From contig DYDL01000003.1 of NCBI GenBank assembly GCA_020717925.1, positions 1 through 41,870 of the forward strand: a DNA stretch of 41,870 nt, read 5' to 3'. Both the position numbers and the translations under genes were made by a program. This document shows positions 20,931 through 35,182 of the stretch, piece after piece. Under the pieces are notes generated by a model that made no database searches, was not told the DNA's origin, and saw nothing but the letters and a program-made list of their open reading frames with translations. How positions within the stretch are numbered: the stretch's first letter is position 1; each line of letters starts with the position of its first letter. Origin of the DNA: Desulfocapsa sp. (GTDB lineage Bacteria > Desulfobacterota > Desulfobulbia > Desulfobulbales > CG2-30-60-27).

Positions 20931-20990
20931 GAACTTCCAGCCTTATACCAAAGCAGGCGGCATTTGGGTAGGGGGATTCCGGCATTTGCC

Positions 20991-21269
20991 TCATGGCCAC
21001 CGCATCGCCCCATGCAGAACCCGGATAATTTCCAGGCATTCGCCCTGAACGCGATAAGGCAGAAGGTATGGCGTGCCGGCGATAATGAACTCGCGGGTAC
21101 CCGGGGTTCTACCTGGGCGCCCCAGGTGTGGCTGTATAATCAGATCTTTTTCCACCTTGGTGATGATTTTCCGCACCAGTTTTTTGGCGGCGCCTGGTTT
21201 GTCCTTGGCAATGAAGGCGCGTAGCGATTGGAGATCTGAAACCGCTTTTGCGGTCCACCTTACTTGCAC
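20991..21269 (-). CDS. RelE/ParE-family toxin
   Basis: VRWTAKAVSDL, PHLGRPG...GTRE, YRV..IIRVLHG. Confidence 0.9.
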   Translation of the reverse strand: MQVRWTAKAVSDLQSLRAFIAKDKPGAAKKLVRKIITKVEKDLIIQPHLGRPGRTPGTREFIIAGTPYLLPYRVQGECLEIIRVLHGAMRWP

Positions 21270-21523
21270 TTCGGCGGCCTCTTCTCCTGGGGGGTATCCC
21301 AACTCGCTACCCAGTCGGCAACTGCGGCATGCTCAATCAAACGGCCACTCCTCGCATCCTGCAGGCCATCTTCAATCGCCTGTAACTGCCAGGCCTCTTC
21401 CGCAACGTACCGCTTGACCGCCTCAGCGGCGCAAAAAGATTTCGACCGTTGGGTGGCCTCGGCGAGCATGGTGAGTTGTTGCGCCAGTTCATCGGGCAAG
21501 CGGATACTGATTGTCGCTGACAT
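21260..21523 (-). CDS. CopG/RHH-family antitoxin
   Basis: TISIRLPDEL...RSKS..AAEAVKRYV, W..SWDT; AGGAGG RBS; TGTATACA/TGCATACA boxes at 21535-21561. Confidence 0.88.
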   Translation of the reverse strand: MSATISIRLPDELAQQLTMLAEATQRSKSFCAAEAVKRYVAEEAWQLQAIEDGLQDARSGRLIEHAAVADWVASWDTPQEKRPPKCK

Positions 21524-21667: not shown

Positions 21668-21704
21668 GTGAATACTCAGGTGGATAGATTTACTGAGCAG
21701 TTAC
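21668..21704. repeat. Compact palindromic element, copy 2
   Basis: GTGAATACTCAG-gtggatagattta-CTGAGCAGTTAC; TCAGGTGGATAG identical to 20764-20775; overlaps vapC stop. Confidence 0.65.
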
Positions 21705-22111
21705 CGTTTTTTATTACTGGCGAATTGCACCAGATTGACACCGCCTTCATCACGCAACACGGTGAAATGATTGTCCAGGGTCAATACCGGCAAGTCGTTG
21801 GCCCGGGCCACGGCGGCAATGTAGCAATCCGCCAGGCCAACGGTGCGGCCCTTGTTGCGCAGCCGGTTGGCGAGGCCCCCTGCGCTGACCCAATTCTCCA
21901 GACTTTCAGGAAGAAAATCAAATAAGTGCGGAAACCCGAGAAGGTGAGCCGCCTGCTTTTCACTCCTCACGCCTTGCAGCAGTTCAGCTAAAATCAAGCC
22001 AAGGCAGCAGATGCGGTCGTCGTCCAGCAGCGCCGAAACCAGGCCAAAGCACGGCTCTTCCCGCCGGAAATAGGCGATCCAGGCGGAGGTATCGACCAGC
22101 ACCCTACCCAA
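21701..22111 (-). CDS. vapC: VapC PIN-domain toxin
   Basis: VLVDTSAWI, ELLQG, DCYIAA, TLDNHF. Confidence 0.9.
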   Translation of the reverse strand: MGRVLVDTSAWIAYFRREEPCFGLVSALLDDDRICCLGLILAELLQGVRSEKQAAHLLGFPHLFDFLPESLENWVSAGGLANRLRNKGRTVGLADCYIAAVARANDLPVLTLDNHFTVLRDEGGVNLVQFASNKKR

Positions 22112-22313
22112 GCCGGTGGTCTCCGTGCCGAAGTTCCTCGGCGGATAAGGAGAATTCGATTTTGCCAGCCATGCCCTTAAGTTGTTCCTTTTTCATTTTG
22201 CGAATCTCGTCCCGGACCGCCAGGATAACCGCCTCGGTCTTGTTTTTTGCCTTCACGGCGGTCATGAGTTCCTGCACAAGATCCATCGGTAAAGTTATGC
22301 TTGTTCTTTGCAT
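22104..22313 (-). CDS. vapB: VapB-type (RHH) antitoxin
   Basis: RTSITLP..LV...KNKTEAV..A..G.IEF; overlaps toxin start. Confidence 0.8.
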   Translation of the reverse strand: MQRTSITLPMDLVQELMTAVKAKNKTEAVILAVRDEIRKMKKEQLKGMAGKIEFSLSAEELRHGDHRLG

Positions 22314-22457
22314 GGCTAGCCCCCATAAAAAAATCTCATAGCATATGATGGCTAGTCCATGCTAAAATGTCAACCAGTTTATAACACCAGTTTATAACGG
22401 TCGTATTGAGTTGCTTCGGATTTTATCCCGGCACGACCTTAGTAAAGGGCAGGCAAA

Positions 22458-23309
22458 TCAGGAGTGGGCGGCTTGCTGGCGTTTTTTGAGCTGTTCTTCA
22501 ATGTGGGGCCGCAAGAGCCGGAGGGTGGGCGGGGTGTAGGAGAGTTCATAGTCCTCGAATTGCGGAATTTTGGGCACGAACTCGGGCACCAGGGCTTTGA
22601 GGTCGGCGGGCGGCGCGCTATATTTACCGGTAAAGGCGGCAATGGCTTGCTGGATGGCAGCCGCTTGCTCAAACACGGCAAGGCTATTCTGATACCGTTC
22701 CCGTAGCGCGTCATCCTGTTCCGCTGCTACCATGCCACGTAGCCAGATCACCCCGACCTCGATATCGCCACCCTCGGCCGCCAAGGTGCTGGCCAGATGC
22801 CCAAACCAGCTTGGAGCTTCGGGCTTTTCCGAGGCAATCTTGAGAAAACGCGCGGCATTACCGAAATCGCTTAAGTGGTAGAAATAGTTGAAACCCGTGA
22901 AAAAAGGCCAAATGAAATTCTCCGGCATGGCATCCATGGCCTTGTTCAGTATACGGTTGGCTTCCCGCGCGTAATCTTGGCCAATAAAGGGCAGGCTGGA
23001 ATTGCAAATAAAATAAGTATCGACGAAACGAGGATGCAAGGTGGAGGCACCATCAAGATGTTGGGTAAGGCTCTCGGCATAGTCATAAGGGTCGCGGCCT
23101 GGCTTCACTCCGCCCAAAAATACGTTGGACTTGATGAAAAGCAGCTCGCCGCCCAACTGCTTCAAATATCCCAACGCCGTCTCCTGAATGCGCGAAGCCA
23201 ATGGAAAGGCCAGTTCCACCAGCCTTTCTTGAAATAGTTGTTCCTGATGGGAAAAAAGCCCCGCATAGGCTGCGAGCAGGCAAAGCAAAACCAACAAGTT
23301 GCGGATCAT
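22458..23309 (-). CDS. Membrane-anchored TPR-like pilus accessory protein (PilG/XapA-like)
   Basis: N-terminal TM, LHPRF, W..PFFTGFNYFY; ATGA overlap with permease; downstream of pilA ABC genes. Confidence 0.7.
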   Translation of the reverse strand: MIRNLLVLLCLLAAYAGLFSHQEQLFQERLVELAFPLASRIQETALGYLKQLGGELLFIKSNVFLGGVKPGRDPYDYAESLTQHLDGASTLHPRFVDTYFICNSSLPFIGQDYAREANRILNKAMDAMPENFIWPFFTGFNYFYHLSDFGNAARFLKIASEKPEAPSWFGHLASTLAAEGGDIEVGVIWLRGMVAAEQDDALRERYQNSLAVFEQAAAIQQAIAAFTGKYSAPPADLKALVPEFVPKIPQFEDYELSYTPPTLRLLRPHIEEQLKKRQQAAHS

Positions 23310-24133
23310 TGCAAATCCCGGCGCTGGTAGATTGTGGCGGCGAGCCATAGAGCTAGAACGGTATAGGCAGCGGCAAGGCCAAAGCCAGTGGCCAAGAGAT
23401 TTAAAGACGGCAACGCCTCTTCGACAGTGATAAAGTTCTTGAAATCCAGGCGGGCAAAATCCGGGAATACTGAGGTCAGCCCGGCCAAGAATTTGGCCAT
23501 CCCTGCCTGGCTATTCGACTCCGCCAGCTTTTGCGCCACCGACTCGCGCACCACCGGCAAGCCTGAGCAGATGGCGTAAAAGGAGAGCGAGACGAGCAGC
23601 ACCGGGAAGTTGCCGCGCACCAGGCCCGAAAAAAGCAGGATCACGGAAAGCAGCATGAGCTGCATGGCAAACATGCCTCCCCAGGCCAGCAGAAAGGCGC
23701 CAACAGATAGCTGCTCAAAATAGACAGGCTTAACCAGGCCCTTAATGATTGCAAGGGTGCCGAAGCCGATGCCGCCTAGCAGCAGATTGAGCAGCAGCAA
23801 GAGAAACGCGAGCCCCGCAAACACACCCAGCACATATTCGCCACGGGAGATAGGTCGTGCGATCAGTGAATAAATAACGCGGCGCTCCTCGTCCAAGGCC
23901 ATGACTTGCACGGCGTGGAAAAAAAGAAAAATAAAGCCGGTGAGCCAGGCAACGGAGATCACAAAATCGCTAGCCGCCCGGCCAATATCGCGGGAGATGA
24001 AGTCGAAGAACAACAAGCCTCCGGCCTCGGCGGCCAGGGCGAGTGCGATCAGGCCCAACAGAGCGTGACGGCGAAGGCCGTCGAGCACCAGGAGCCTGGC
24101 CAGGGCCGCGATGCGGCGCAATTTATCCGGCAT
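23306..24133 (-). CDS. ABC transporter permease (PilI-like)
   Basis: Multiple TM helices, EERR..Y.LIARPISR.EY..G, PDF..LDFK, QRRDL. Confidence 0.85.
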   Translation of the reverse strand: MPDKLRRIAALARLLVLDGLRRHALLGLIALALAAEAGGLLFFDFISRDIGRAASDFVISVAWLTGFIFLFFHAVQVMALDEERRVIYSLIARPISRGEYVLGVFAGLAFLLLLLNLLLGGIGFGTLAIIKGLVKPVYFEQLSVGAFLLAWGGMFAMQLMLLSVILLFSGLVRGNFPVLLVSLSFYAICSGLPVVRESVAQKLAESNSQAGMAKFLAGLTSVFPDFARLDFKNFITVEEALPSLNLLATGFGLAAAYTVLALWLAATIYQRRDLQ

Positions 24134-24869
24134 GGACGCTTCCTCCTTGAACCAGGCGCAGAAAACCATCGGCCAGGGTGGCGCTGCCGGTCTGGCCGCA
24201 GAGGGCGGAAGGGCTGCCCTCGAATATGCTCTGCCCTTGGTGCAGAAGCAACACCCGGTCGGCCACCCGGTCCACGTCTTCAAGAATGTGCGAACAGAAG
24301 AGGATGGAGCGGCCTTCTTGCTTTAACTCTTGAATAAGCGCCAGAATGTCGGCGCGGCCGATGGGATCGAGCCCGCTCATGGGCTCGTCCAGAATGAGCA
24401 GTTCTGGGTCGTGTAGAAGAGCAATGGCGAAGTTAGCCCGCTGCTGCATGCCCTTGGAAAAGTCGCGCAACGGCCGCCGCCTCGCCTCCCACAGGCTCAA
24501 GCGCTTAAGCCACTTCTCGCCGCTTGCGCTGATCGACTTGGCCGTCATCAGGCAGGTGGCGCCGGTATAGCGCAGCATGTCGAGCACCGTGAGGTTGGCC
24601 GGGAAGCTCGCGGTTTCCGGTAGATAGCCGATGCGGCGGCGCAGCAGATGGTCGCGTGGGGGCTGGCCAAAGACCTGGATGCTGCCCTTGTCTGGCCGGA
24701 TGAAGTCCATGAGCAGCTTGATGCTCGTGCTCTTGCCGGCGCCGTTTGCCCCGATTAACCCAAGGGTTTCGCCCTGCCCAACCGTGAACGAAACCTCCCG
24801 AAGGGCCGTGTGCGCCCGTCCGGTAAGCTCCTTGGCGTAAGTCTTCCAAACCTGTGAAAATTTAATCAT
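24123..24869 (-). CDS. ABC transporter ATP-binding protein (PilH-like), complete copy
   Basis: GANGAGKST, FSKGMQQR, LILDEPMSGLDP, CSH. Confidence 0.93.
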   Translation of the reverse strand: MIKFSQVWKTYAKELTGRAHTALREVSFTVGQGETLGLIGANGAGKSTSIKLLMDFIRPDKGSIQVFGQPPRDHLLRRRIGYLPETASFPANLTVLDMLRYTGATCLMTAKSISASGEKWLKRLSLWEARRRPLRDFSKGMQQRANFAIALLHDPELLILDEPMSGLDPIGRADILALIQELKQEGRSILFCSHILEDVDRVADRVLLLHQGQSIFEGSPSALCGQTGSATLADGFLRLVQGGSVHAG

Positions 24870-24898
24870 GGGGACGTTGTTTACCTAGTGATTTTAAT
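24870..24898 (+). repeat. RAYT-associated site A
   Basis: GGGGACGTTGTTTACCTAGTGATTTTAAT; 23/29 to site B; abuts ABC ATPase ATG. Confidence 0.8.
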
Positions 24899-24921
24899 AT
24901 TGCGCTCGGACCCCGAAAACC

Positions 24922-25341
24922 TTACAGCACCATGACTATACAACGGGCAAATCCCTCAAGATCGTTGAGGGATTCCCGGATCACCTGATGGACCAGATGA
25001 TAGTCTATTTTCCAATACATATGCACAAGCAGATTCCGGCAGCGGGCGGCCTTTTGCAGATTGGTGGACAGTTCCGCCGGAATCACCCCGGCCGATTCCA
25101 GCAGGGCAAAACATTGGGCATACTCTTCCGGAACTTGGCGCAACTGCTTGGCGCAGACATGATAGCAAAGTTGCAGGGAGGCCTCGATGGCAACCTGCAA
25201 TCGGTAACATGCTATGTCCAACGTATCCTGATCGGCAAGAAAAGCCTGAAGCGGCAACGTCTCGATCAGCCGCAGCCGGGCCACCGAATCGCTTATTTCC
25301 TGGGCGCGGGTCCGCACCAATTCCTGATTAAGCACCGGCAA
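24922..25341 (-). CDS. hepT: HEPN/DUF86 (HepT-like) ribonuclease toxin
   Basis: RNLLVHMY (RX4HXY) motif. Confidence 0.9.
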   Translation of the reverse strand: MPVLNQELVRTRAQEISDSVARLRLIETLPLQAFLADQDTLDIACYRLQVAIEASLQLCYHVCAKQLRQVPEEYAQCFALLESAGVIPAELSTNLQKAARCRNLLVHMYWKIDYHLVHQVIRESLNDLEGFARCIVMVL

Positions 25342-25735
25342 AGGCCTCCTTGGTAGCCCTCAGCAGCAGGGGCTTGAGGTCCAGATACCGGCAGACGGTC
25401 TGCTCGAAGATACGCCCGTGGAGATCAGAATTCCTATCCACTAGGAGTTTGCCACGCAACACCTGAAACACAAACGAAACCGGCGCGTTGTTCAGAGCCC
25501 GCGCATCCACCGGACACCCAATCTGCCTACTCAAGTGATCCGACAGGTCAACGGCGAACATCTCCATGGCTAGGGGGGAAAGCCCCTCAAGATACACGCC
25601 GATGTCAATGTCATGGAACGGAATCTCGTCTAGAAACGAGCCGTGCAGATAGGCGAATTGAATCGCCTCCCGCTCTTGCAGCAGACGGCTGAGGGTGTCG
25701 ATGATCTCGTGCCGTTCCTGAGAGGAAGTCATCAT
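25328..25735 (-). CDS. mntA: Minimal nucleotidyltransferase (MntA-like) antitoxin
   Basis: YLHGSF...DIDIGV motif; overlaps HEPN gene. Confidence 0.9.
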   Translation of the reverse strand: MMTSSQERHEIIDTLSRLLQEREAIQFAYLHGSFLDEIPFHDIDIGVYLEGLSPLAMEMFAVDLSDHLSRQIGCPVDARALNNAPVSFVFQVLRGKLLVDRNSDLHGRIFEQTVCRYLDLKPLLLRATKEAFAGA

Positions 25736-25736
25736 A

Positions 25737-25765
25737 GGGGGCTTTGTTTACTGAGTGAGTTCAAT
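25737..25765 (+). repeat. RAYT-associated site B
   Basis: GGGGGCTTTGTTTACTGAGTGAGTTCAAT; contains the RAYT stop codon; 1 nt from the MNT ATG. Confidence 0.75.
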
Positions 25766-26731
25766 GGCGCGTTCCAGTTTCTTCGCCAATCTTGGCTGTT
25801 CCATGAGTATGCCTGCCCCGCGCCGTGCCGCCCGGCTCACTGCCGCCCGGCCGAGGCGAAGCATCCCGCCCGCCGACGCACCGCCATACCCCAGCAACCA
25901 GATCGCGGCATGACAGAAAACCGCGCGCGCTTCCGAGACCGCGTTTTGCCTGCCTCGCAAGCCAAGCTCCTCGGGGCGCAAACCAAATAGCCCGGCAATC
26001 CGCGTGAGCAACTCCGGCAAAGGAAGCTTTCGATCGATTTGGGCGGCCAGGCCCTTTTTCCGGCTCAGTTGCTCAAGAAAATTTTCGCCGCCCAGCACTC
26101 GCCTGTCAACAATTTTCTCGAAAAATTCCTCCGCATCCCGAGGGGCACGTCCAACCAGTTCAGGACGCCGCCCCTCGGCAATACCGTCCGCCACATAGCT
26201 CAGGTAATTTACGCGGGCCGTGGCAGGACGCTTGCCAAAATGTTGAAGAATCTCGCTCACCGCTTGACCTGGCAAGGGGTCGTGGCCCACAAGCCCGGCA
26301 TGGCCGCACCAGGGATAAAGGCCGAGGGCATCCAAATCTGGCACTACCCCGGCGCGCAAGGGGTTCAGGTGAATGTAGCGCACCAGTTCCAGAAGGTAAG
26401 TTTCTTCATCACAGACAATGGACTTGTAGCGATTCTGAAACAGATGTCCAACGCGCTGATGGCGGCGGTTGAAGTTGACCGCGTACCGGGTGAGCAGTCG
26501 GCGCATGAATTGGCTGAGTGTTGCCTCGCAAGGCTGGACCAGCAGGTGAAAGTGGTTTGGGAGCAAGGCCCAGGCATAGCAAACGGTATTAGTCTCTTCA
26601 AGGGCTCTGGCTAGATATTGGCCAAAAAGCGCGTAGTCTTTCTTGCCAAGGAAAATCTTACGCTTTTCAATACCGCGCACCATAACGTGCTGCATGAGAC
26701 CAGGCATATCGAGGCGGGCTTTGCGTGGCAT
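25748..26731 (-). CDS. REP-associated tyrosine (Y1, HUH) transposase with C-terminal HTH
   Basis: MPRKAR, HVMVRG, PNHFHLL (HUH), GHLFQNRYKS, YIHLNP, YPWCGH; C-terminal HTH-like region. Confidence 0.92.
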   Translation of the reverse strand: MPRKARLDMPGLMQHVMVRGIEKRKIFLGKKDYALFGQYLARALEETNTVCYAWALLPNHFHLLVQPCEATLSQFMRRLLTRYAVNFNRRHQRVGHLFQNRYKSIVCDEETYLLELVRYIHLNPLRAGVVPDLDALGLYPWCGHAGLVGHDPLPGQAVSEILQHFGKRPATARVNYLSYVADGIAEGRRPELVGRAPRDAEEFFEKIVDRRVLGGENFLEQLSRKKGLAAQIDRKLPLPELLTRIAGLFGLRPEELGLRGRQNAVSEARAVFCHAAIWLLGYGGASAGGMLRLGRAAVSRAARRGAGILMEQPRLAKKLERAIELTQ

Positions 26732-26737
26732 GTGAAT

Positions 26738-26766
26738 AATTTAGCGAAAATGATCGGTAAAGTCAA
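26738..26766 (-). promoter_or_regulatory. sigma70 promoter for RAYT, probably leaderless
   Basis: TTGACT-N17-TAAATT-N6-ATG. Confidence 0.6.
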
Positions 26767-26790
26767 AGTAAATCAGTAAGCAACGTCCCC
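26762..26790 (-). repeat. RAYT-associated site C (inverted)
   Basis: Minus strand GGGGACGTTGCTTACTGATTTACTTTGAC; flanked by extra GGGACACCAC (26791-26800). Confidence 0.8.
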
Positions 26791-26800
26791 GTGGTGTCCC

Positions 26801-27316
26801 ACGGCCGATGGGATCCAGACCGCTCATGGGTTCGTCAAGAATTAGCAACTCCGGATCATGAAGCAGGGCTATGGCGAAGTTGGCGCGTTGCTGCATCCCT
26901 TTGGAGTAATCGCGCAGGGGGCGTTTCCTGGCCTCCCAGAGCCGCAGGCGGGTAAGCCAAACTTCCCCCTTTTCCCGGATATCCGGCACAGACATCTGGC
27001 AGGTGCTGCCAGTGAATCGCAGCATATCGAGCACGGTAAGGTTCGAGGGGAAATTGGCGGTTTCCGGCAGATAGCCGATTTGACGGCGTATGGCTGACCG
27101 GGCTGGGGTTTGCCCAAAGATGACGATAGAGCCTGCATCGGGGCGGATAAAATCCATGAGCAGCTTGATGGCTGTGCTCTTGCCCGCGCCATTGGCGCCG
27201 ATGAGGCCAAGGGTCTGCCCTTTGTCCAGGGAGAAGGAGACGTCGTGCAGAGCGGCAGGGGCGGCGAGAAAGAGTTCCTTGGTGTATCTCTTGCAGACGT
27301 TGTCAAACTGAATCAT
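26801..27316 (-). pseudogene. Truncated paralogue of the ABC ATP-binding protein (codons 1-172 only)
   Basis: 126/172 aa identical to 24123-24869, breaks after DPIGR at the element end, lacks H-loop; ORF reads on to 26741. Confidence 0.88.
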
Positions 27317-27342
27317 GGCATAACTTTAATGGATTATCGTAC

Positions 27343-27387
27343 AAAAGAAAAGAGAAGAGGCGCCCTCTTACAGAAAGGCACCTCTTC
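27343..27387 (-). terminator. Rho-independent terminator after pilA
   Basis: GAAGAGGTGCCT...AGGGCGCCTCTTC hairpin followed by TCTTTTCTTTT. Confidence 0.75.
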
Positions 27388-27414
27388 GATCATCTTGCAG
27401 GATACAATGTAGAA

Positions 27415-28014
27415 TTATTTTACGACCCAAGCGGCAACAGCGCCGATATCGTCGGCGGCCGGGGAGTTAGCTGCCACAGAACCATTGAAGGCAACGATAG
27501 TCAGGGCGGTGGCCGTTGCAACGAGAGTCGGGTGCTGGTATATATTGGTAGTTTCTGCTTCGGTGGCGAATGTAGTGTTGCCATTCAGATGCTTTGCTGC
27601 GGCTTGATACGTCGTGGCGGGGGTAGCCGCAGCCGGTGCCAATGGAGCGCGGACAAAGAGAGTAACACCATTGCTAACGGAAACCACGGTCCCCCTATTA
27701 TTAGCATCTGCATCCACTGTGCCGAGACCATCACCGGCACTATTTCCGCCTGAGACTTCGACACCCACGGTGGGTGCAGCGGGAACGAAAGCTCCAGCGT
27801 TGGACTGAGATGTGCCGAAACGCTGCCAGTCGGCAACCAGCGCCGCTTGCGCGGTAACAGCATTCTTCAAATCGCTTAAAGACGCACTGTTGAAGCCACG
27901 AATCCGATACGCCGCAAACTGCGGAATGGCGATAGCCGCCAAAATACCGATGATCGCCACAACGATCATCAACTCAACCAGGGTAAAACCTTTTTCTTGC
28001 CGGTAAATCTTCAT
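27415..28014 (-). CDS. pilA: Type IVa major pilin (long, 199 aa precursor)
   Basis: KG/FTLVELMIVVAIIGILAAIAIPQF; GGAGG RBS; own terminator and sigma54 promoter. Confidence 0.92.
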   Translation of the reverse strand: MKIYRQEKGFTLVELMIVVAIIGILAAIAIPQFAAYRIRGFNSASLSDLKNAVTAQAALVADWQRFGTSQSNAGAFVPAAPTVGVEVSGGNSAGDGLGTVDADANNRGTVVSVSNGVTLFVRAPLAPAAATPATTYQAAAKHLNGNTTFATEAETTNIYQHPTLVATATALTIVAFNGSVAANSPAADDIGAVAAWVVK

Positions 28015-28519: not shown

Positions 28520-29032
28520 ATGAAAATCAACAACAATGGTTTTACCTTGTCCGAGCTAATGATGGCGCTTGCCATCCTTGGCATCTTGACGGCGACAGCC
28601 GCGCCTTCCATTGCCAAAAGCATTCCTCATTATCGTCTGCGCGGGGCTGCGCGGGATCTGATGTGCCAATTCCACCAGGCAAAGGCGGTGGCGGCCCGCA
28701 CCGGAGAAAACGTGGCCATTGTCTTCTCGCCTGATCCAGTAAACCGGTACGAGATTTTTCTGGATAATGGCGATGGCCCTGGCGGCGAGGCAGGGGATCG
28801 CATCCGCAACGGCAGCGAGCTGGTTGTGGCCACGGTCGGGATGCCCCAAGGGATTGTCATCCATGAGACAAAGTTTGGCGGCGTCGATGGCTTGAGCACC
28901 GGGTACGGCCCGCGTGGCCTGCCGTTGACCTTGGGCCATGCCGGACTGCGGATTGAGGGGGGCGATGCCATGGCCCTGCGGCTGGTATTGTCCATTGCCG
29001 GCCGGCTGCGGCTGGAGGCGGGGGAAGGGTAA
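28520..29032 (+). CDS. fimT: FimT/FimU/GspH-like minor pilin, operon 1
   Basis: NG/FTLSELM prepilin motif; LRGAARDL; first gene of minor-pilin operon. Confidence 0.85.
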   Translation: MKINNNGFTLSELMMALAILGILTATAAPSIAKSIPHYRLRGAARDLMCQFHQAKAVAARTGENVAIVFSPDPVNRYEIFLDNGDGPGGEAGDRIRNGSELVVATVGMPQGIVIHETKFGGVDGLSTGYGPRGLPLTLGHAGLRIEGGDAMALRLVLSIAGRLRLEAGEG

Positions 29033-29033
29033 G

Positions 29034-29113
29034 CAGGTTGTTTAGACTGTAGTCTGTTGGGGGGTTAGGCTGTTTCTCGCCTAAAAGACTAAACACCTTC
29101 AGACTATCTACCT
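29034..29113. repeat. Palindromic intergenic element, copy 3
   Basis: GCAGGTTGTTTAGACTGTAGTCTGTT (29033-29058) identical to 30448-30473; right arm ...CAGACTATCTACCT. Confidence 0.8.
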
Positions 29114-29122
29114 AAAATTAAA

Positions 29123-30052
29123 ATGAACCAACCGCCTCAGCATAAAACCACCGGCTTCACCCTGGTGGAGTTGATGATCGCCTTGGTGGTGGCCAGTCTG
29201 GTCCTGGGTGCGGTCTACTCTTCCTTGCAGTCCCAACACGCCAGCTACCTGGCCCAGGATCAGGTGGTGGAGATGCAGCAGAATCTGCGCGCCGCCATGA
29301 ACGTCATGGCCCGCGAGATCCGCATGGCCGGCTACGATCCTACCCTGCGGGCGTGGCGGGAGCCGACCCCGGCCTCGGTGCTTGCGGCCACCGCCAGCCA
29401 GCTCCAGATCTCCATGGACAGCAATGAAAACGGCGTGGTGGTGGACCCCGACCCCAAGCCGCCCAACACCGAGACTAATGAAGTAGTGGCCTTTGGTTTT
29501 GGCTCCGACATTGATGTGAAGCCGGCCGATGGCATTGCCGACGGTGGGGTCGCCAACCTGGGCCGCAAAACTGGCATTGGCGGCGGCTTTCAGCCCATTG
29601 CCGAAAATATCCATGCCGTGGGCCTGGCCTATGCCTTTGACGCCGACGGCAACGGCTTCCTGGACTTTAACGACCTGAACGGCAACACCATACAGGACCA
29701 GGGCGAGACCACGATCTGGGCGGTTGACACCGATAGTGACGGCGATTGGGAGGATCTGGACAGCAACGGCGACGGCTTCATTAACAGCGACGACCTGCCC
29801 GCGGTCGACCAGGACAGCAAGCTGGCAGTCAAGGCCATTGCGGGAAATCATACCGGCATTGCCATGCACCCGGAAGATGTACGCGCCGTCCGCATCTGGC
29901 TGCTGGCCCGAGCCCGCCAGCCGGACTCGCGCTATAACAACACCAGAACCTACGTGGTGGGTCGGCAGGTGGTGACGGTCAATGACAACTTCCGGCGGCA
30001 ATTGCTGGAGACGGTGGTGGACTGCCGGAACATGGGGCTGGTGCGGCAATGA
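29123..30052 (+). CDS. pilW: PilW-like minor pilin, operon 1
   Basis: TG/FTLVELM, REIRMAGYDP, VRAVRIWLLAR, CRNMG. Confidence 0.88.
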   Translation: MNQPPQHKTTGFTLVELMIALVVASLVLGAVYSSLQSQHASYLAQDQVVEMQQNLRAAMNVMAREIRMAGYDPTLRAWREPTPASVLAATASQLQISMDSNENGVVVDPDPKPPNTETNEVVAFGFGSDIDVKPADGIADGGVANLGRKTGIGGGFQPIAENIHAVGLAYAFDADGNGFLDFNDLNGNTIQDQGETTIWAVDTDSDGDWEDLDSNGDGFINSDDLPAVDQDSKLAVKAIAGNHTGIAMHPEDVRAVRIWLLARARQPDSRYNNTRTYVVGRQVVTVNDNFRRQLLETVVDCRNMGLVRQ

Positions 30053-30441
30053 GAGCGAGCAACGCGGCGGGTTTTACCCTGATGGAGGTGCTGATGGCAA
30101 TCACCCTGTTTGCCATCGGCATCATGGCCGCCGCCGGTATGCAGGTGGCCGCCATCCGGACTAATGCCACGGCCCGGATGATCAGCGAGGCCACCGTGCT
30201 TGCGTCTCGCCAGACAGAGATGCTGCTGGATCGCCCCTATCCGCATGCTGACCTGCGCCAGGTGCCGCCAGGCCAGCCCCTACCCGAGGTGGAGCAGGGC
30301 AACAGCAAGGCGTCCTGGAAGGTGCGGGATAATTTCCCGGAAATTGATACCAAGACCGTGACCCTCACGGTGACCGGCATGGAGCGGGGCCTTGAGAAAA
30401 CCGTGGTGCTTGACCGGGTCATCGCGCTGGGGGCGCGGTAG
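30049..30441 (+). CDS. pilV: PilV-like minor pilin, operon 1
   Basis: AG/FTLMEVLMAITLFAIGI..MQ. Confidence 0.85.
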   Translation: MRASNAAGFTLMEVLMAITLFAIGIMAAAGMQVAAIRTNATARMISEATVLASRQTEMLLDRPYPHADLRQVPPGQPLPEVEQGNSKASWKVRDNFPEIDTKTVTLTVTGMERGLEKTVVLDRVIALGAR

Positions 30442-30448
30442 AACCGCG

Positions 30449-30516
30449 CAGGTTGTTTAGACTGTAGTCTGTTAGGGGTTTAGCTAATAGACTAAAAACC
30501 TACAGACTATTCACCT
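30449..30516. repeat. Palindromic intergenic element, copy 4
   Basis: 26 nt identical to copy 3; right arm CCTACAGACTATTCACCT. Confidence 0.8.
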
Positions 30517-30550
30517 ACGCTGCGCAGCTAGGCTGCGCCGGAGATCTGCC

Positions 30551-31174
30551 ATGGATATTCTACACTATCGACCTGAACCGCTACAGCCTAAACCCCTACA
30601 GCCTATCCACCTGCCCTGTTCCCGGCCGCGCCGGGAGCAGGGCTTTGTCCTGCTCACCGTCCTCCTGGTGATGCTGCTGGTTGTCGTGGTCGGGGTTATG
30701 GCCACCAGTACCAGTACGGTGGAGTTGCAGGTGGCCGCCATGGATAAGTTTCATGAGCAGGCCTTGGTCGCCGGCGACTCGGGCGTTTACGTGGCGCCCA
30801 AGGTGATCGGTCGGGCCCTGGCGGAACTGGGGGTGCCGGATAACCCGAATTTCACCACCATTGCCCCCTGGTTCTATGATGAAATCATGGGGGTGGCTGA
30901 CCCGCCCGAGCCTGATACGACTCCGGAGAGTGCCCTCGCCTTCAGCCTGGGCGGCGACACCAAAATTGATATTAACATCCAGCGGCTGGGTCAGGAAAAC
31001 ATGACCGGCGGCGGATCGGAATTCGGCGCCGGCGTCGCGGGCATGGGGGCAGGCGGCCCCACCGGGGTACAGATTCTTTATTCCATTGATGCCCTGGGCA
31101 CCGGCTTGCGGAAGACCTCGTCCAATATCGTGGCCGTCTACCGGCTGATTCCAGGCACCGCCGGGGGGCTGTAA
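30551..31174 (+). CDS. pilX: PilX-like minor pilin, operon 1
   Basis: EQG/FVL (no Glu5), STVELQVA, A..AGDSG; precedes pilY1. Confidence 0.82.
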   Translation: MDILHYRPEPLQPKPLQPIHLPCSRPRREQGFVLLTVLLVMLLVVVVGVMATSTSTVELQVAAMDKFHEQALVAGDSGVYVAPKVIGRALAELGVPDNPNFTTIAPWFYDEIMGVADPPEPDTTPESALAFSLGGDTKIDINIQRLGQENMTGGGSEFGAGVAGMGAGGPTGVQILYSIDALGTGLRKTSSNIVAVYRLIPGTAGGL

Positions 31175-31177
31175 ATC

Positions 31178-34100
31178 ATGGCAAGGCTGACAGGTGCTAT
31201 TTTGCTCGCAGTGCTACTGACGGCCGGGCGTTTACTGGCCGCGGAGCCCAGCATGGCCACCTATACCGCCGTGCCGCCCTTCTTGGCCCATGGCGCCAAA
31301 CCGAATATCCTCATTATCCTGGATAACTCCCTGTCCATGAACTTCAACGCTTATGGCTCCCCGCCCGCCGCCAACGGCCTGGTGCCGAATCAGCCCTATG
31401 TCGGCCCGCCCGCCTGCGATAGGGAGTGCCAAAGCTATTATGGCTACTTCAATCCAGAGTGGTTCTACCATTTCAGCTCCACCAAATTTGTGCATAAATA
31501 CCGCAAGCTGCAGTACCAGGGCGGCGGCTGCACCAACGCCTGGCAGGTGGCGGATACCAGCGGCGCCCTAGCCTGCCTGGCCGATGCCCAGGTGGCGGCC
31601 GAGCAGTTGTGGGATGGTAACTGGCTGAACTGGGCGACCATGCGGCGCATTGATGTGGCCCGTAAGGTGCTCATGGGCGGCCGGGCCTCGGCCGCCACTG
31701 GCGTTGGCAGGCAGACCTTGTATGGCGAAGCGCCGACCCAGGCCGGGCAAACCTTTGTCAAACTCCATGACAGCACCAAGAGCAGCGGCGCGGCGGTGTC
31801 GCCGTACGCGGGCAGCTATTATTACGGCGTGGCTGACGGCGCGCTCTATGTGAGCCAGGAGAGCAATCCCTTTGCCCAGGCGGATCGTTATCCGATCGCG
31901 GTGGACAAACAGGAAGCCTATGAGCCCAACGATTTTCACGGGCACAATGTGGCCGGCGTGCTCCAACGGGTCGGCGACCTGGCGCGCTGGGGCAGCGAGT
32001 TTTTTAACCAGGGCACTGGCGTCAACGGTTCCGGCGGCTTCATCGCCCATCCCGTGGGTAGCGATATTCAGACCATTGTCGCCGATTTCGCCCATGCCAG
32101 CGCCGATACCCGCAGCCCGCTGGCCGAGGCCTTTTATGTGGCCATGCAGTATTTCCGGCAGCAGGAGGTGCAGGCCGGGCTGGATTATCCTGGTAATTCG
32201 ATTCCACACGGCAGCCCGGAGCAGGATCCATATTACAATGGCGAGGAATTCGTGCCCTGCTCTAGCAGTTTCGTCATCCTGTTCAGCGATGGCGCTTCGA
32301 CCAAGGACAGCAAGATCCCGGCGGAGTACAAGGATTACGATCATGACGGCGACCATACTGCCTGCGATGAAGAGCTTGGCAGCAACTGCGACTATGCCGA
32401 CGGCGGCACGGATTTTCTTGACGATCTGGCCCTCTATGCCCGCACTGTTGACTTGCGCCCCGACCTGGCGGGCGGGCAGCACCTGATCCTTTACCCGATC
32501 CATGCCTTTGGCAATGATGCCTCGGCCCGCATGCTCATGCAGGACGCGGCCAAAAACGGCGGCTTTGTGGACAGCAACAACAACCAGATCCCAGACCTGA
32601 ACCAGGAGTGGGATGCCAACAACGACACCCTGCCTGACACCTATTTCGAGGCCACGGACGGGGCGCGGCTGGAGGGCGCCCTGCAGAGCGCCATCGTGGA
32701 TATCTTCGCCAAGAGTGCCTCCGGCACCTCTGTTGCCATGCTGACCACCTCCGCATCTGGAGAGGGCACCGTGGTGCAGGCCTCTTTTGCGCCGCGGCTT
32801 ACCGAGGTAGCGCTGGATGGCGGCCGCCTGGAGTCCGCTACCTGGGCCGGGGCATTGCAGTCGCTCTGGGTGGATCCATGGGGCATGCTGCGCGAGGACA
32901 CCGATCAGGACCAGCAATTGGAGGTCGCGGCCGATCGGGTGGTGCGCTTTCGGGTGGACGAGCAGGGCAACACGGTGGTCGATCGCTTCGCGGTGTCGGC
33001 CGCATTTCCTTACCCTGACCTGCAAAACGACAGCCCCTTGCCCGCCGTGGCCATGACCGACCTGTGGCCGGTGTGGGATGCCGGCGCGGTGCTGGCCGCG
33101 ACCCGGCCCGACGACCGGACGATCCATACCAGTCTGGATGGCGCCGGCTTCACCGCCTTTGAGCATGCCAATGCCAACCTCATCCGTCCGTACCTCGGGG
33201 TGAAGGATGGCGTTGCCTGGGGCTATCTGGGCAACAGCCATACGGACCGGGGTGCCAATCTCATCCGCTATATCCGCGGCCAGGACACGGGATTGGCGGG
33301 CATTACCCAGGTGCGCAACCGCACCGTTAATGGCCGCACCCTGAAGCTCGGGGATACCATTCATGCCACCCCGGTGAGCGTGGCCGGGCCGCCCGACCGC
33401 TTCGGCCTGATCTACGGCGATCTCTCCTATGAGGCCTATGCCCAAAAATATACCCCGCGGCGGGAGCCTGGCACTGCCAACGTCCTGGGCCGGGAGACCA
33501 TGGTCTACGTCGGGGCCAACGATGGCATGCTGCACGCCTTTACCTCCTGGTTATACGACGCCGAGGCGCGGGCATTTATCAAGCCGGCCAGTGCCGGGGC
33601 TGGGGAGACCATTGGCGCCGAGTTGTGGGCCTATATTCCCCAGGCCCTGCTACCCCACCTGAAGTGGCTGGCTCGGCCGGATTATGGTCATGTTTATTAT
33701 GTTGACCTGCCGCCCAAGGTCGGTGATGCCAGGATCTTTCCGGATGATGCCGTGCATCCCAATGGCTGGGGCACCGTGCTGGTCGGCGGCCTGGGCCTGG
33801 GCGGCAAGGAGATCGAGGTCGTTGACGACTTCAATTATGACGGCATCGACGTCACCCGGCGCTTCACTTCAAGCTACTTCGCCATCGACATCACCAATCC
33901 GCGCGCCCCACGTCTGCTCTGGGAAAGGAGCTATGATGACCTGGGACTCACCACCTGCGCCCCGGCCATCGTCAAGGTTGGCCCTCTGGACATGAAGACC
34001 CGGACCTGGGATGACAAGTGGTTTCTCGTCCTGGGCTCCGGCCCCAGCGGGAACCAGGGGAGCTTTGATGGCTTCAACGGTAAGAGCGCAATCAACGGCC

Positions 34101-35182
34101 ATATCTATATCATTGATCTGGCCACCGGCGAGCCATACCGTAATGGAGCGCACGACTGGCTCTTTGCCACCGATGACCCCAAGGGTTTCCTGGGTGGGGC
34201 TGCCCCCTTTGACATGGGGTTGAATTATAACGTGGACGCCATCTATCTGACCGAGGCCCATGAGAATGCGGCTGGCGGCAGTGAGGGGGCGGTCTACAAG
34301 ATTACGGTTCCCTGGCTGTGCACGGCCGGCAATTGCGGCGGTGTGCCATACGGCGGCAACGCGGGCGGGTCATATGTCCGTGACCCCCTTGACCCCGCTC
34401 ACCCCTGGCGCCTGAGCAAACTTTTTGCCTCGCCACGCCCCATTACCGCCCCGCCCGCCCTGAGCCTGGACTTTGACAAGCGGGTCTGGGTCTACTTTGG
34501 CACGGGCCGTTACTTCAGCCAGGAAGACCGCGCCAGCACGGAGCAGGAATATCTGTATGGCGTCATGGACCCCTTCTTTAATCAGGAACACCGGCCAGAC
34601 TATTTTCACAATATTGATACGAGCTGCACTGTGACTGGCGATACGCTCCTGGATGGCACCGGGCTCATGGTCACCGCTGACGGCGGGGTGTATCGGGCCG
34701 ATGACCTCGGTTATTACGGTGAGTTCGAACATCTTCTGCAAGAGCAGGGGCAAAGGGACGGCTGGCGACACCGGCTGACCACCACCGGCGAACGGTCGTT
34801 GAGCAAGCCGGTGATCGCTGGCGGCTTAACCCTGTTCACCACCTTTGTCCCCAGCCAGGCGCTCTGCGATTACGGCGGCCGTAGCGCGTTGCATGCCCTG
34901 TACTTTGAAACTGGCACCGCCAACCAGCGGCCGGTTTGGGACAACGGCGTAGAGGAGATCAATCTACCCGGCATCAATACGCCCGTAACCCGGGTCAAGG
35001 CGACCCTGGACCTGGGTCAGGGGTTGGCCGCCAGTTCGGCTCTCCATATCGGCCAGGAACCGGATGGCGCCATCACCGCCATTATCCAGAAAAGCACCGG
35101 CGAACTCGCCGACCTCCTCTTCACCCCGGCCTTCAAGGTGCGCAGCGGTTTGCGTTCCTGGAAGGATATGACGGTGGAATAG
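31178..35182 (+). CDS. pilY1: PilY1/PilC tip adhesin 1 (1334 aa)
   Basis: Signal peptide, PNILIILDNSLSM (DxSxS), LGDTIHATP, YVGANDGMLHAF, VYFGTGR, C-terminal LRSWK. Confidence 0.92.
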   Translation: MARLTGAILLAVLLTAGRLLAAEPSMATYTAVPPFLAHGAKPNILIILDNSLSMNFNAYGSPPAANGLVPNQPYVGPPACDRECQSYYGYFNPEWFYHFSSTKFVHKYRKLQYQGGGCTNAWQVADTSGALACLADAQVAAEQLWDGNWLNWATMRRIDVARKVLMGGRASAATGVGRQTLYGEAPTQAGQTFVKLHDSTKSSGAAVSPYAGSYYYGVADGALYVSQESNPFAQADRYPIAVDKQEAYEPNDFHGHNVAGVLQRVGDLARWGSEFFNQGTGVNGSGGFIAHPVGSDIQTIVADFAHASADTRSPLAEAFYVAMQYFRQQEVQAGLDYPGNSIPHGSPEQDPYYNGEEFVPCSSSFVILFSDGASTKDSKIPAEYKDYDHDGDHTACDEELGSNCDYADGGTDFLDDLALYARTVDLRPDLAGGQHLILYPIHAFGNDASARMLMQDAAKNGGFVDSNNNQIPDLNQEWDANNDTLPDTYFEATDGARLEGALQSAIVDIFAKSASGTSVAMLTTSASGEGTVVQASFAPRLTEVALDGGRLESATWAGALQSLWVDPWGMLREDTDQDQQLEVAADRVVRFRVDEQGNTVVDRFAVSAAFPYPDLQNDSPLPAVAMTDLWPVWDAGAVLAATRPDDRTIHTSLDGAGFTAFEHANANLIRPYLGVKDGVAWGYLGNSHTDRGANLIRYIRGQDTGLAGITQVRNRTVNGRTLKLGDTIHATPVSVAGPPDRFGLIYGDLSYEAYAQKYTPRREPGTANVLGRETMVYVGANDGMLHAFTSWLYDAEARAFIKPASAGAGETIGAELWAYIPQALLPHLKWLARPDYGHVYYVDLPPKVGDARIFPDDAVHPNGWGTVLVGGLGLGGKEIEVVDDFNYDGIDVTRRFTSSYFAIDITNPRAPRLLWERSYDDLGLTTCAPAIVKVGPLDMKTRTWDDKWFLVLGSGPSGNQGSFDGFNGKSAINGHIYIIDLATGEPYRNGAHDWLFATDDPKGFLGGAAPFDMGLNYNVDAIYLTEAHENAAGGSEGAVYKITVPWLCTAGNCGGVPYGGNAGGSYVRDPLDPAHPWRLSKLFASPRPITAPPALSLDFDKRVWVYFGTGRYFSQEDRASTEQEYLYGVMDPFFNQEHRPDYFHNIDTSCTVTGDTLLDGTGLMVTADGGVYRADDLGYYGEFEHLLQEQGQRDGWRHRLTTTGERSLSKPVIAGGLTLFTTFVPSQALCDYGGRSALHALYFETGTANQRPVWDNGVEEINLPGINTPVTRVKATLDLGQGLAASSALHIGQEPDGAITAIIQKSTGELADLLFTPAFKVRSGLRSWKDMTVE
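35134..35182 (+). repeat. pilY1 3' end, duplicated at 35764-35813
   Basis: CAAGGTGCGCAG and CCTGGAAGGATATGACGGTG blocks identical in both copies. Confidence 0.88.

Follow-up and report, generated by a model that had tools for sequence, protein, structure and literature searches.

A truncated ABC ATPase gene at the end of a TIRtron in a Desulfocapsa genome: a probable mosaic of two type IV pilin modules

Major pilins are exposed on the cell surface, often serve as phage receptors, and have alleles that move between strains. In Pseudomonas aeruginosa the exchange concerns the major pilin allele or a pilin island, and the pilin groups carry linked accessory genes. To our knowledge the breakpoints of pilin exchanges are rarely visible. 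Transposase-promoted adjacent deletion and homology-facilitated illegitimate recombination are general mechanisms of rearrangement, and as far as we know the TIRtrons, domesticated-looking tyrosine transposase units, are poorly understood and have no demonstrated activity. Here we describe a pilin locus of Desulfocapsa sp. in which the major pilin gene (pilA) is followed by a truncated ABC ATPase gene (ABC1'), a TIRtron and a second, complete copy of the ATPase gene (ABC2). The window, that is the whole stretch of DNA that was analysed, is the complete 41,870-nt contig DYDL01000003.1 of a metagenome-assembled genome (MAG; GCA_020717925.1, hereafter G000; 513 contigs, 99.8% complete, 1.9% contamination), which is present in a groundwater metagenome run.

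In the available portions of two papers on these units, TIRtrons are tyrosine transposases (TIRYTs) with flanking terminal inverted repeats (TIRs) that carry the motif GGGGWSAS, and many of the proteins have a C-terminal extension resembling a helix-turn-helix (HTH) domain (PMC3733652, PMC6006769). ABC transporters have also been connected with pili: the accessible text of a paper on Myxococcus places the ABC-transporter-like genes pilG, pilH and pilI in the type IVa pilus cluster (PMC6060248).

The ATPase fragment and the joint

We consider it probable, though well short of certain, that the locus is a mosaic of two diverged modules, each with the order pilA-ABC-permease-third gene, which meet in one joint at the left end of the TIRtron; the TIRtron would be the breakpoint and not the vehicle. 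This gene order recurs across the genome and metagenome loci that we tabulated, and all features of the module in the window are read on the minus strand. The gene pilA (27415..28014) encodes a major type IV pilin of 199 aa in which the leader MKIYRQEKG is followed by FTLVELM (Pfam N_methyl, 38.5 bits, and NCBIfam type IV pilin models), and 3' of it stands an intrinsic-terminator-like hairpin with a 14-pair stem and then a T run (27354..27387). ABC1' (26801..27316) is a PilH-like ABC ATPase gene cut down to its first 172 codons, recognized by Pfam ABC_tran and by its homology to ABC2; it keeps the Walker A, signature and Walker B motifs and is without the H-loop region.

In the original prediction the two ATPase copies were said to be joined exactly by the element, and the anatomy agrees with this at both ends. 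The homology of ABC1' to ABC2 runs through codon 172 (DPIGR) and ends at 26801, where it is directly followed by a 10-nt linker GGGACACCAC (26791..26800, defined by reading the sequence and by alignment) and by the left TIR GGGGACGTTGCTTAC (26776..26790, found by pattern search and as an inverted repeat). The frame of ABC1' continues for 19 codons into the element, the open reading frame (ORF) ending at 26741. The linker may represent either the final bases derived from ABC or an incomplete additional copy of the TIR. At the opposite end, the outer right TIR (24870-24884; GTAAACAACGTCCCC on the minus strand, GGGGACGTTGTTTAC on the plus strand) abuts the ATG of ABC2 (24123..24869), a complete PilH-like ABC ATPase of 248 aa that also matches Pfam ABC_tran.

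The two copies are, on comparison of their sequences, best taken as the products of two diverged module lineages and not of a recent duplication. The predicted identity of 126 in 172 residues proved exact (BLASTP, no gaps, E 3e-94), and at the nucleotide level it falls to 68.6%. Nonsynonymous divergence (dN) is 0.214 and synonymous divergence (dS) 2.18, giving a dN/dS of 0.098. From the 60 alignment columns without variation among the other 33 sequences ABC1' departs nowhere, and its 172 codons contain no stop or frameshift. In a tree built on the 172 shared columns, ABC2 groups with the ATPase of the only other species of the genus in our collection (G001) with support of 99/95, ABC1' falls outside this clade, and an approximately unbiased (AU) test rejects ABC1' and ABC2 as sisters (p=0.026). 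It is because of this tree and AU test, the low dN/dS beside a saturated dS and the untouched invariant columns that we derive the copies from two lineages; the low dN/dS and the intact invariant columns further imply that ABC1' was a working gene for nearly all of its divergence and was cut recently.

The opposite possibility, that ABC1' is a decayed recent duplicate of ABC2, made for example by target or local duplication when the element moved, is scarcely credible. The copies do stand on either side of one element and share the initial ATGATT. Nevertheless the nucleotide identity, the dS, the dN/dS and the AU test all speak against it, as does a supposedly decayed copy without stops, frameshifts or changes at invariant columns, and the earlier statement that the copies are too diverged for a target-site duplication was thus borne out.

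If the mosaic is real, one module (pilA and 172 ATPase codons) would end no more than 10 nt from the outer border of the left TIR, the other (complete ATPase, permease and third gene) would follow the right TIR as in G001, and ABC1' would be what is left of an ATPase gene that functioned until not long ago. As to mechanism and timing, we infer one recombination, with a homologous crossover in a conserved flank and, at the TIR end, a joint that was illegitimate or promoted by the transposase. The candidate flanks would be the near-invariant pilin 5' end with its upstream region or, on the other side, the VapB gene and its toxin-antitoxin (TA) island. The first of these could serve as a homology anchor for recombination, judging from the first ~110-180 nt of the pilin gene: in the eight relatives whose compared loci included a pilA region, this stretch is 77-90% identical to that of G000. 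The joint might have formed in one step, by homology-facilitated illegitimate recombination; alternatively, a second module may have been acquired in tandem and a later deletion may have stopped at the element. The incoming side may have been either pilA with ABC1' or a TIRtron-ABC2-permease block that replaced the 3' part of the resident module, and neither direction would account for the full dS and pilin data without a further event. The net effect would be a different pilA allele placed beside a working ABC2-permease operon.

The second species and other lineages

The pilin site of G001 shows which parts of the locus are old. There the order is pilA-TIRYT-ABC-permease-third gene, with 69% aa identity for the transposase and 81-82% between its ATPase and ABC2, and neither an ABC fragment nor a TA pair was found between pilA and ABC. 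The G001 element has perfect 15-bp TIRs, and its right TIR matches the outer right TIR of G000 at 15/15 positions. Since G001 carries the TIRYT at the same site, the element is resident there in the genus and was not brought in with foreign DNA, and it follows that the start of ABC2 at the right end is an inherited position and not part of the scar. The idea that DNA from two lineages had been spliced with the element as the joint is therefore supported for the two lineages and for a joint at the left end, but not for the element as a vehicle or for the right junction as a scar.

The right junction itself is tight. G000 lacks the 16-nt spacer with AGGAG that precedes the ATPase gene in G001, and no Shine-Dalgarno-like sequence was read upstream of ABC2. 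The right TIR runs into the ATG of ABC2, and the inverted repeat reaches into the start codon (CAT/GTG arms).

Downstream of ABC2 lie the gene for an ABC-2-type permease of 275 aa (23306..24133), which gives weak Pfam ABC2_membrane matches below the cut-off, is 80% identical (aa) to its counterpart in G001 and is syntenic in the pilA-ABC loci examined, and a conserved third gene of 296 aa (22458..23348), syntenic in most loci. The third gene had been labelled as a TPR gene; this was not confirmed, as it has no usable match in Pfam or NCBIfam.

Compared gene by gene between G000 and G001 (dS by NG86), nine flanking genes, namely the housekeeping gene, the ParE-like/RHH pair, VapB and five minor-pilin/PilY1 genes, have dS values of 0.25-0.75, and the eight genes of the stretch that starts with the 296-aa gene and closes with pilA, among them those for the TIRYT, MntA and HepT, all have values of 0.99-2.48. 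The third gene stands at 1.83 and the TIRYT gene, 72-73% identical in nucleotides, at 0.99. With dS above that of the flanks throughout, it is the module as a whole that is unusual and not only pilA and the fragment. In this comparison the 5.6-kb module appears to behave as an exchangeable cassette between conserved flanks, and at least two exchange events separate G000 and G001. It had been proposed that pilA plus the ATPase fragment, or else the downstream block, was swapped; the pilin of G000 is indeed of a different type from that of G001, but the divergence extends over the whole 5.6 kb (dS at least 0.99).

On one side the conserved flank includes the minor-pilin operon (28520-35182), divergent from pilA and containing FimT/GspH-like, PilW-, PilV- and PilX-like genes and a gene for a 1334-aa PilY1-like protein, all named from position and size and not from a family scan. 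This operon is 82% identical in nucleotides to that of G001 over 6.7 kb and is for this reason counted as flank and not as part of a swapped block. At the module's other side lies the TA island, with an RHH/ParE-like pair (20991-21523) and a VapB/VapC-like pair (21701-22313).

Pilin relationships do not follow the genus. The pilin of G000 falls in a well-supported clade with pilins of three other families (f6, f8 and f17) and of one metagenome contig, and that of G001 in a different well-supported clade; the best NCBIfam model for the G000 protein is the Myxococcus-type PilA. The gene had also been described as visibly richer in AT than the housekeeping genes. This is clear at third codon positions, with a GC content of 53.5% against 70-76% in the ABC copies, but slight overall (54.8% against 57.9% in the window).

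A resident origin of both ATPase copies was considered with these data. Two old paralogous modules in tandem, with no horizontal transfer, may have suffered one deletion from codon 172 of the first ATPase gene to the left end of the TIRtron, with loss of the permease and third gene of the first module and of the pilA of the second, and G001 would have lost the first module entirely. Tandem modules of this kind do exist: a distant metagenome contig (L089:431-7097) carries two complete pilA-ABC-permease-third-gene modules whose ABC-permease parts are 68% identical in nucleotides and whose pilins are of different types, and at two other loci (L085, L088) two adjacent pilA genes precede one module and a second ABC gene is present. 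The tandem intermediate thus occurs in nature and insertion followed by deletion is plausible, although it still needs two diverged modules. The weak placement of ABC1' as sister to the ABC2-G001 pair, together with its purifying selection and intact invariant residues, also fits a gene that was functional until a recent deletion. Near relatives tell against this origin. When they were checked for tandem paralogues, 53 of 400 genomes of the order were found to carry this ATPase, each in a single copy, and in G001 nothing of a first module is seen between pilA and the TIRtron. Nor does a resident origin explain why the dS of ABC2, permease, third gene and TIRYT to G001 is 2-4 times that of the flanks, or why the pilin groups with those of other families. 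We therefore hold it to be unlikely.

Several points weigh against the mosaic of two module lineages that we prefer. ABC1' joins the ABC2-G001 pair only weakly (85/45), so that an old paralogue within the family fits equally well, and the AU value is modest and comes from 172 columns. The dS values near or above 1 are saturated under NG86, and the genes are short. A donor was not found: the best match to ABC1' in the 400 genomes of the order was 77% over the full length and 82% for one partial match, the best in metagenome contigs was 76%, and the best match to pilA was 66%; the horizontal origin is accordingly argued from phylogeny and dS and not from a matched source. ABC1' is also uneven along its length. 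In nt 1-288, ABC2 agrees with G001 at 54 informative sites and ABC1' with G001 at 21, and in nt 289-516 the counts are 26 and 25; the split point was picked after the break between unitigs had been seen, and the pattern hints at most that ABC1' may itself be a mosaic. This change of similarity lies near a branch of the Logan graph inside ABC1' (26999-27028), on account of which the link of this pilA to the TIR-adjacent 228 nt depends on a 30-nt overlap and on the original assembly. The metagenome run whose unitig covers both junctions (X1) may be the source sample and so would not be independent support. Finally, activity of the TIRYT protein, including any cutting of DNA here, is hypothetical.

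The same branch, with another at 22224-22253, has to be considered for an assembly chimera, in which two co-occurring strains or species would have been joined at short shared words in this MAG of 513 contigs. The central unitig of run X1 has a depth of 22.8 against 28-33 in its neighbours, which differ among themselves as much, and ~85% identical pieces at depth 4-5 match the permease gene (23532-23644) and hepT (25073-25206); they hint that a less abundant strain, with a different central block, may co-occur. The shift in similarity near the branch would suit a chimera too. Yet a single unbranched and independently built unitig of run X1 (4805 nt) covers 22224-27028 without differences and spans both the ABC2/TIR and the TIR/ABC-fragment junctions, so that the truncated-plus-complete layout is real irrespective of the sequence 5' of 27028. 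A third ABC copy, which might be the displaced true neighbour, was not found in the MAG, the next matches being 33-40% identical, and in register ABC1' and ABC2 share no identical stretch longer than 18 nt, which is not enough for the two to be mis-joined. Run X2, from another study, holds identical pieces of the central block and of the pilA side at similar low depth, its parts without cover being uninformative; run X3 did not cover the region. A chimera is very unlikely in our opinion. The original prediction had asked for verification of the assembly with spanning reads; the spanning unitig confirms both junctions and leaves the branch inside ABC1' unexplained.

The transposase unit and its toxin-antitoxin pair

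The ends of the element are inverted repeats with arms at 24867-24895 and 26765-26793. Its transposase-like gene (25748..26731) encodes a Y1/HUH protein of 327 aa that matches Pfam Y1_Tnp with 43.6 bits (cut-off 23) and in whose translation the HFH motif and the RY of FQNRYKS can be read. It had been taken for a RAYT. That name is not upheld: the NCBIfam model REP_Tyr_transpos gives 66.7 bits, below its cut-off of 80, and the TIR is no REP-like repeat family in G000, where its 15-mer with up to two mismatches has 17 matches against 20 for a reversed control. As judged from its sequence features, the element is rather a TIR-flanked tyrosine transposase unit of the TIRYT/TIRtron type.

More than 557 homologues of the transposase were found in species genomes. 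Most of the 63 family loci analysed have TIRs that start with GGGACG or GGGGACG, one ~45-65 nt ahead of the start codon and the other at the stop codon or just past it. The TIR of G000 reads GGGGACGT and fits the published GGGGWSAS motif at 6/8 positions. Family copies number 0-10 per genome among 61 relatives of the order, with five in G000. About 190 aa of the protein lie beyond the Y1 domain; a C-terminal DnaA_C or HTH-like domain was not detected by Pfam at E up to 10, the last 137 aa giving only DUF3775 (E 0.085), and a sequence search of the PDB had no match at E up to 0.1.

Genes of the family often have tandem or incomplete TIR copies upstream, which is why the 10-nt linker may itself be such a copy. 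A TIR-specific search for extra copies expects ~0.4 chance matches per 10 kb and strand, for which reason we rely only on close tandem copies and on the layout of two Desulfuromusa loci described below. No second copy of the element exists in G000; only a 73% partial match was found, a paralogue on a short contig. On this contig (C296:1-1088, locus L002) a 44% identical TIRYT paralogue stands alone, the contig beginning at the left TIR GGGGACGTTCTTAAC and ending just past the stop codon, and the assembly seems to break there at the TIRs of the paralogue. The TIRYT gene at the pilA-ABC site of one G001-like metagenome contig (L070:2865-3853) aligns as two separate segments, residues 1-90 and 92-327; this points to a frameshift, and in some strains the resident gene may be undergoing decay.

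The element could also be thought of as portable homology, that is, an active mobile TIRtron composite that had inserted in the donor ATPase gene at codon 172, recombination of the incoming donor DNA with the recipient then taking place inside the shared element. This would put the joint at the element end, as observed, and would agree with a TIRYT gene whose identity and dS to G001 are like those of the rest of the block, with the 0-10 family copies per genome in the order and with the same transposase-MntA-HepT composite in Desulfuromusa. We regard it as quite improbable, because the element at the same site in G001 points to inheritance and not insertion, the TIR forms no repeat family in G000 and the element has no second copy there, and a donor with an already broken ATPase gene would be needed. 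Moreover, mobility of TIRtrons is not demonstrated in the available part of PMC3733652.

Between the transposase gene and ABC2 the element of G000 carries a pair of small genes. The first (25328..25735) encodes an MntA-like nucleotidyltransferase antitoxin of 135 aa (50.4 bits with Pfam Polbeta, above its own cut-off; 49.5 bits with NCBIfam MntA_antitoxin, short of its cut-off of 60). The second (24922..25341), which overlaps mntA by 14 nt, encodes a HepT-family RNase toxin of 139 aa (Pfam HepT-like 96.4 bits; NCBIfam HepT_toxin 107.3 bits, cut-off 60). The pair is predicted to be a type VII MntA-HepT toxin-antitoxin system; it may, as the original prediction supposed, stabilize the junction.

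This pair is nested between duplicated right TIRs. The inner copy GTAAACAAAGCCCCC (25737..25751, minus strand) is degenerate, with two mismatches to the pattern, overlaps the transposase stop codon and stands 1 nt before the ATG of mntA. Beyond hepT, at 24870..24907, a relic of the transposase 3' end (...ERNIKITR*) is followed by the outer right TIR. The two regions, 24870-24907 and 25737-25774, form a 38-nt direct repeat with 74% identity, that is, a duplication of the right TIR and of the last transposase codons. In G001 a homologue of the pair, 76% identical in nucleotides, is found ~4-5 kb from the pilin site in the TA island, between the ParE-like pair and the housekeeping gene, and that site is empty in G000 (~20982-20990).

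The arrangement recurs in two Desulfuromusa MAGs (L153:1065-3003 and L157:1-1920), with the order left TIR, TIRYT, right TIR, MntA-like gene, HepT-like gene and second right TIR, the last preceded by a copy of the transposase 3' end as in the window; the HepT proteins are only 30-33% identical to that of the window, and a pilD-like (prepilin-peptidase-like) gene comes directly after the composite. Among 38 small ORFs just 3' of 64 family loci with at least 1.2 kb of downstream sequence, four encode nucleotidyltransferases and three or four HepT/HEPN proteins. Word searches of the open-access literature returned no paper on TA cargo in TIRtrons or on TIRYT genes at pilin loci. The available text of PMC6006769 notes one E. 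coli case in which a toxin-antitoxin operon stands in place of a REPtron locus.

TIRYT-like genes (31-69% aa identity) within ~2.5 kb of a pilA-ABC module were seen at L059 (genome G007), L066, L084/L087, L096 and L099, and in G001 with L068 and L070-L072. They lie between pilA and ABC, or 5' of pilA in the opposite orientation. Against 0-10 copies per ~3-Mb genome the vicinity of pilA-ABC looks enriched, the numbers being small and the lineages not independent. None of the best 80 of the more than 557 TIRYT homologues lies beside a pilA module, only unrelated ABC genes and one pilin-like N-terminal match (L148) being found there.

From the MntA-HepT pair between duplicated right TIRs in G000 and in the two Desulfuromusa MAGs, and from TIRYT genes near pilA-ABC in several lineages, a broader role might be proposed, in which TIRtrons are recombination platforms whose right TIR captures cassettes such as MntA-HepT, whose ends are breakpoints for pilin modules and beside which the ABC fragment serves as a homology arm. 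We find this distinctly unlikely as it stands; if true, pilA alleles could be swapped via the ABC fragment without touching the working ATPase operon.

Comparison with known systems

In the mosaic that we prefer, a still-pristine gene fragment would mark one pilin breakpoint, at the end of a TIRtron. Should this coincidence have a causal basis, TIRtrons would gain a first concrete role in the genome, as breakpoint or cassette-capture sites at a variable surface-antigen locus, and the sister genomes, with filled and empty sites, would be well suited to testing it. Otherwise the locus would be an ordinary mosaic at a recombination-prone pilin locus of an uncultured groundwater bacterium.

As far as the available portions of PMC3733652 and PMC6006769 describe TIRtrons (subclass 2.1 in the latter), the element resembles them in having a Y1/HUH gene longer than that of RAYTs, TIRs that begin with GGGG(A)C at fixed short distances from the gene, few copies per genome and extra TIR copies often nearby. 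The Bac_DnaA_C/HTH_23/HTH_28-like C-terminal extension presented for subclass 2.1 (PMC6006769) is not seen by Pfam in the G000 protein. A TA pair between duplicated right TIRs, present in G000, is not mentioned in the accessible text of the two papers. With RAYTs and REPtrons the element shares the HUH/Y1 catalytic core and the typical condition of a single-copy resident gene between inverted repeats. The protein of G000 is, however, about twice as long, scores below the NCBIfam RAYT cut-off and belongs to a genome without a REP family.

The cut of a gene exactly at an element end with no target duplication, and homology at one recombination end only, are what transposase-promoted adjacent deletion and homology-facilitated illegitimate recombination have in common with this locus; in G000 these mechanisms are read from the anatomy of the joint.

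Genes for an ABC ATPase and a membrane partner right after pilA recall pilG/H/I of Myxococcus as these are given in the available text of PMC6060248. The gene order may differ, and orthology of the G000 genes to those for PilH, PilI and PilG, like a role in pilus biogenesis, is putative.

The pilin exchange of P. aeruginosa is comparable in its hypervariable pilin between conserved flanks, in pilin types that run against the species tree and in linked accessory genes. In G000, by contrast, the accessory genes are an ABC transporter set, and the breakpoint is marked by a relic gene fragment at the end of a transposase-like unit.

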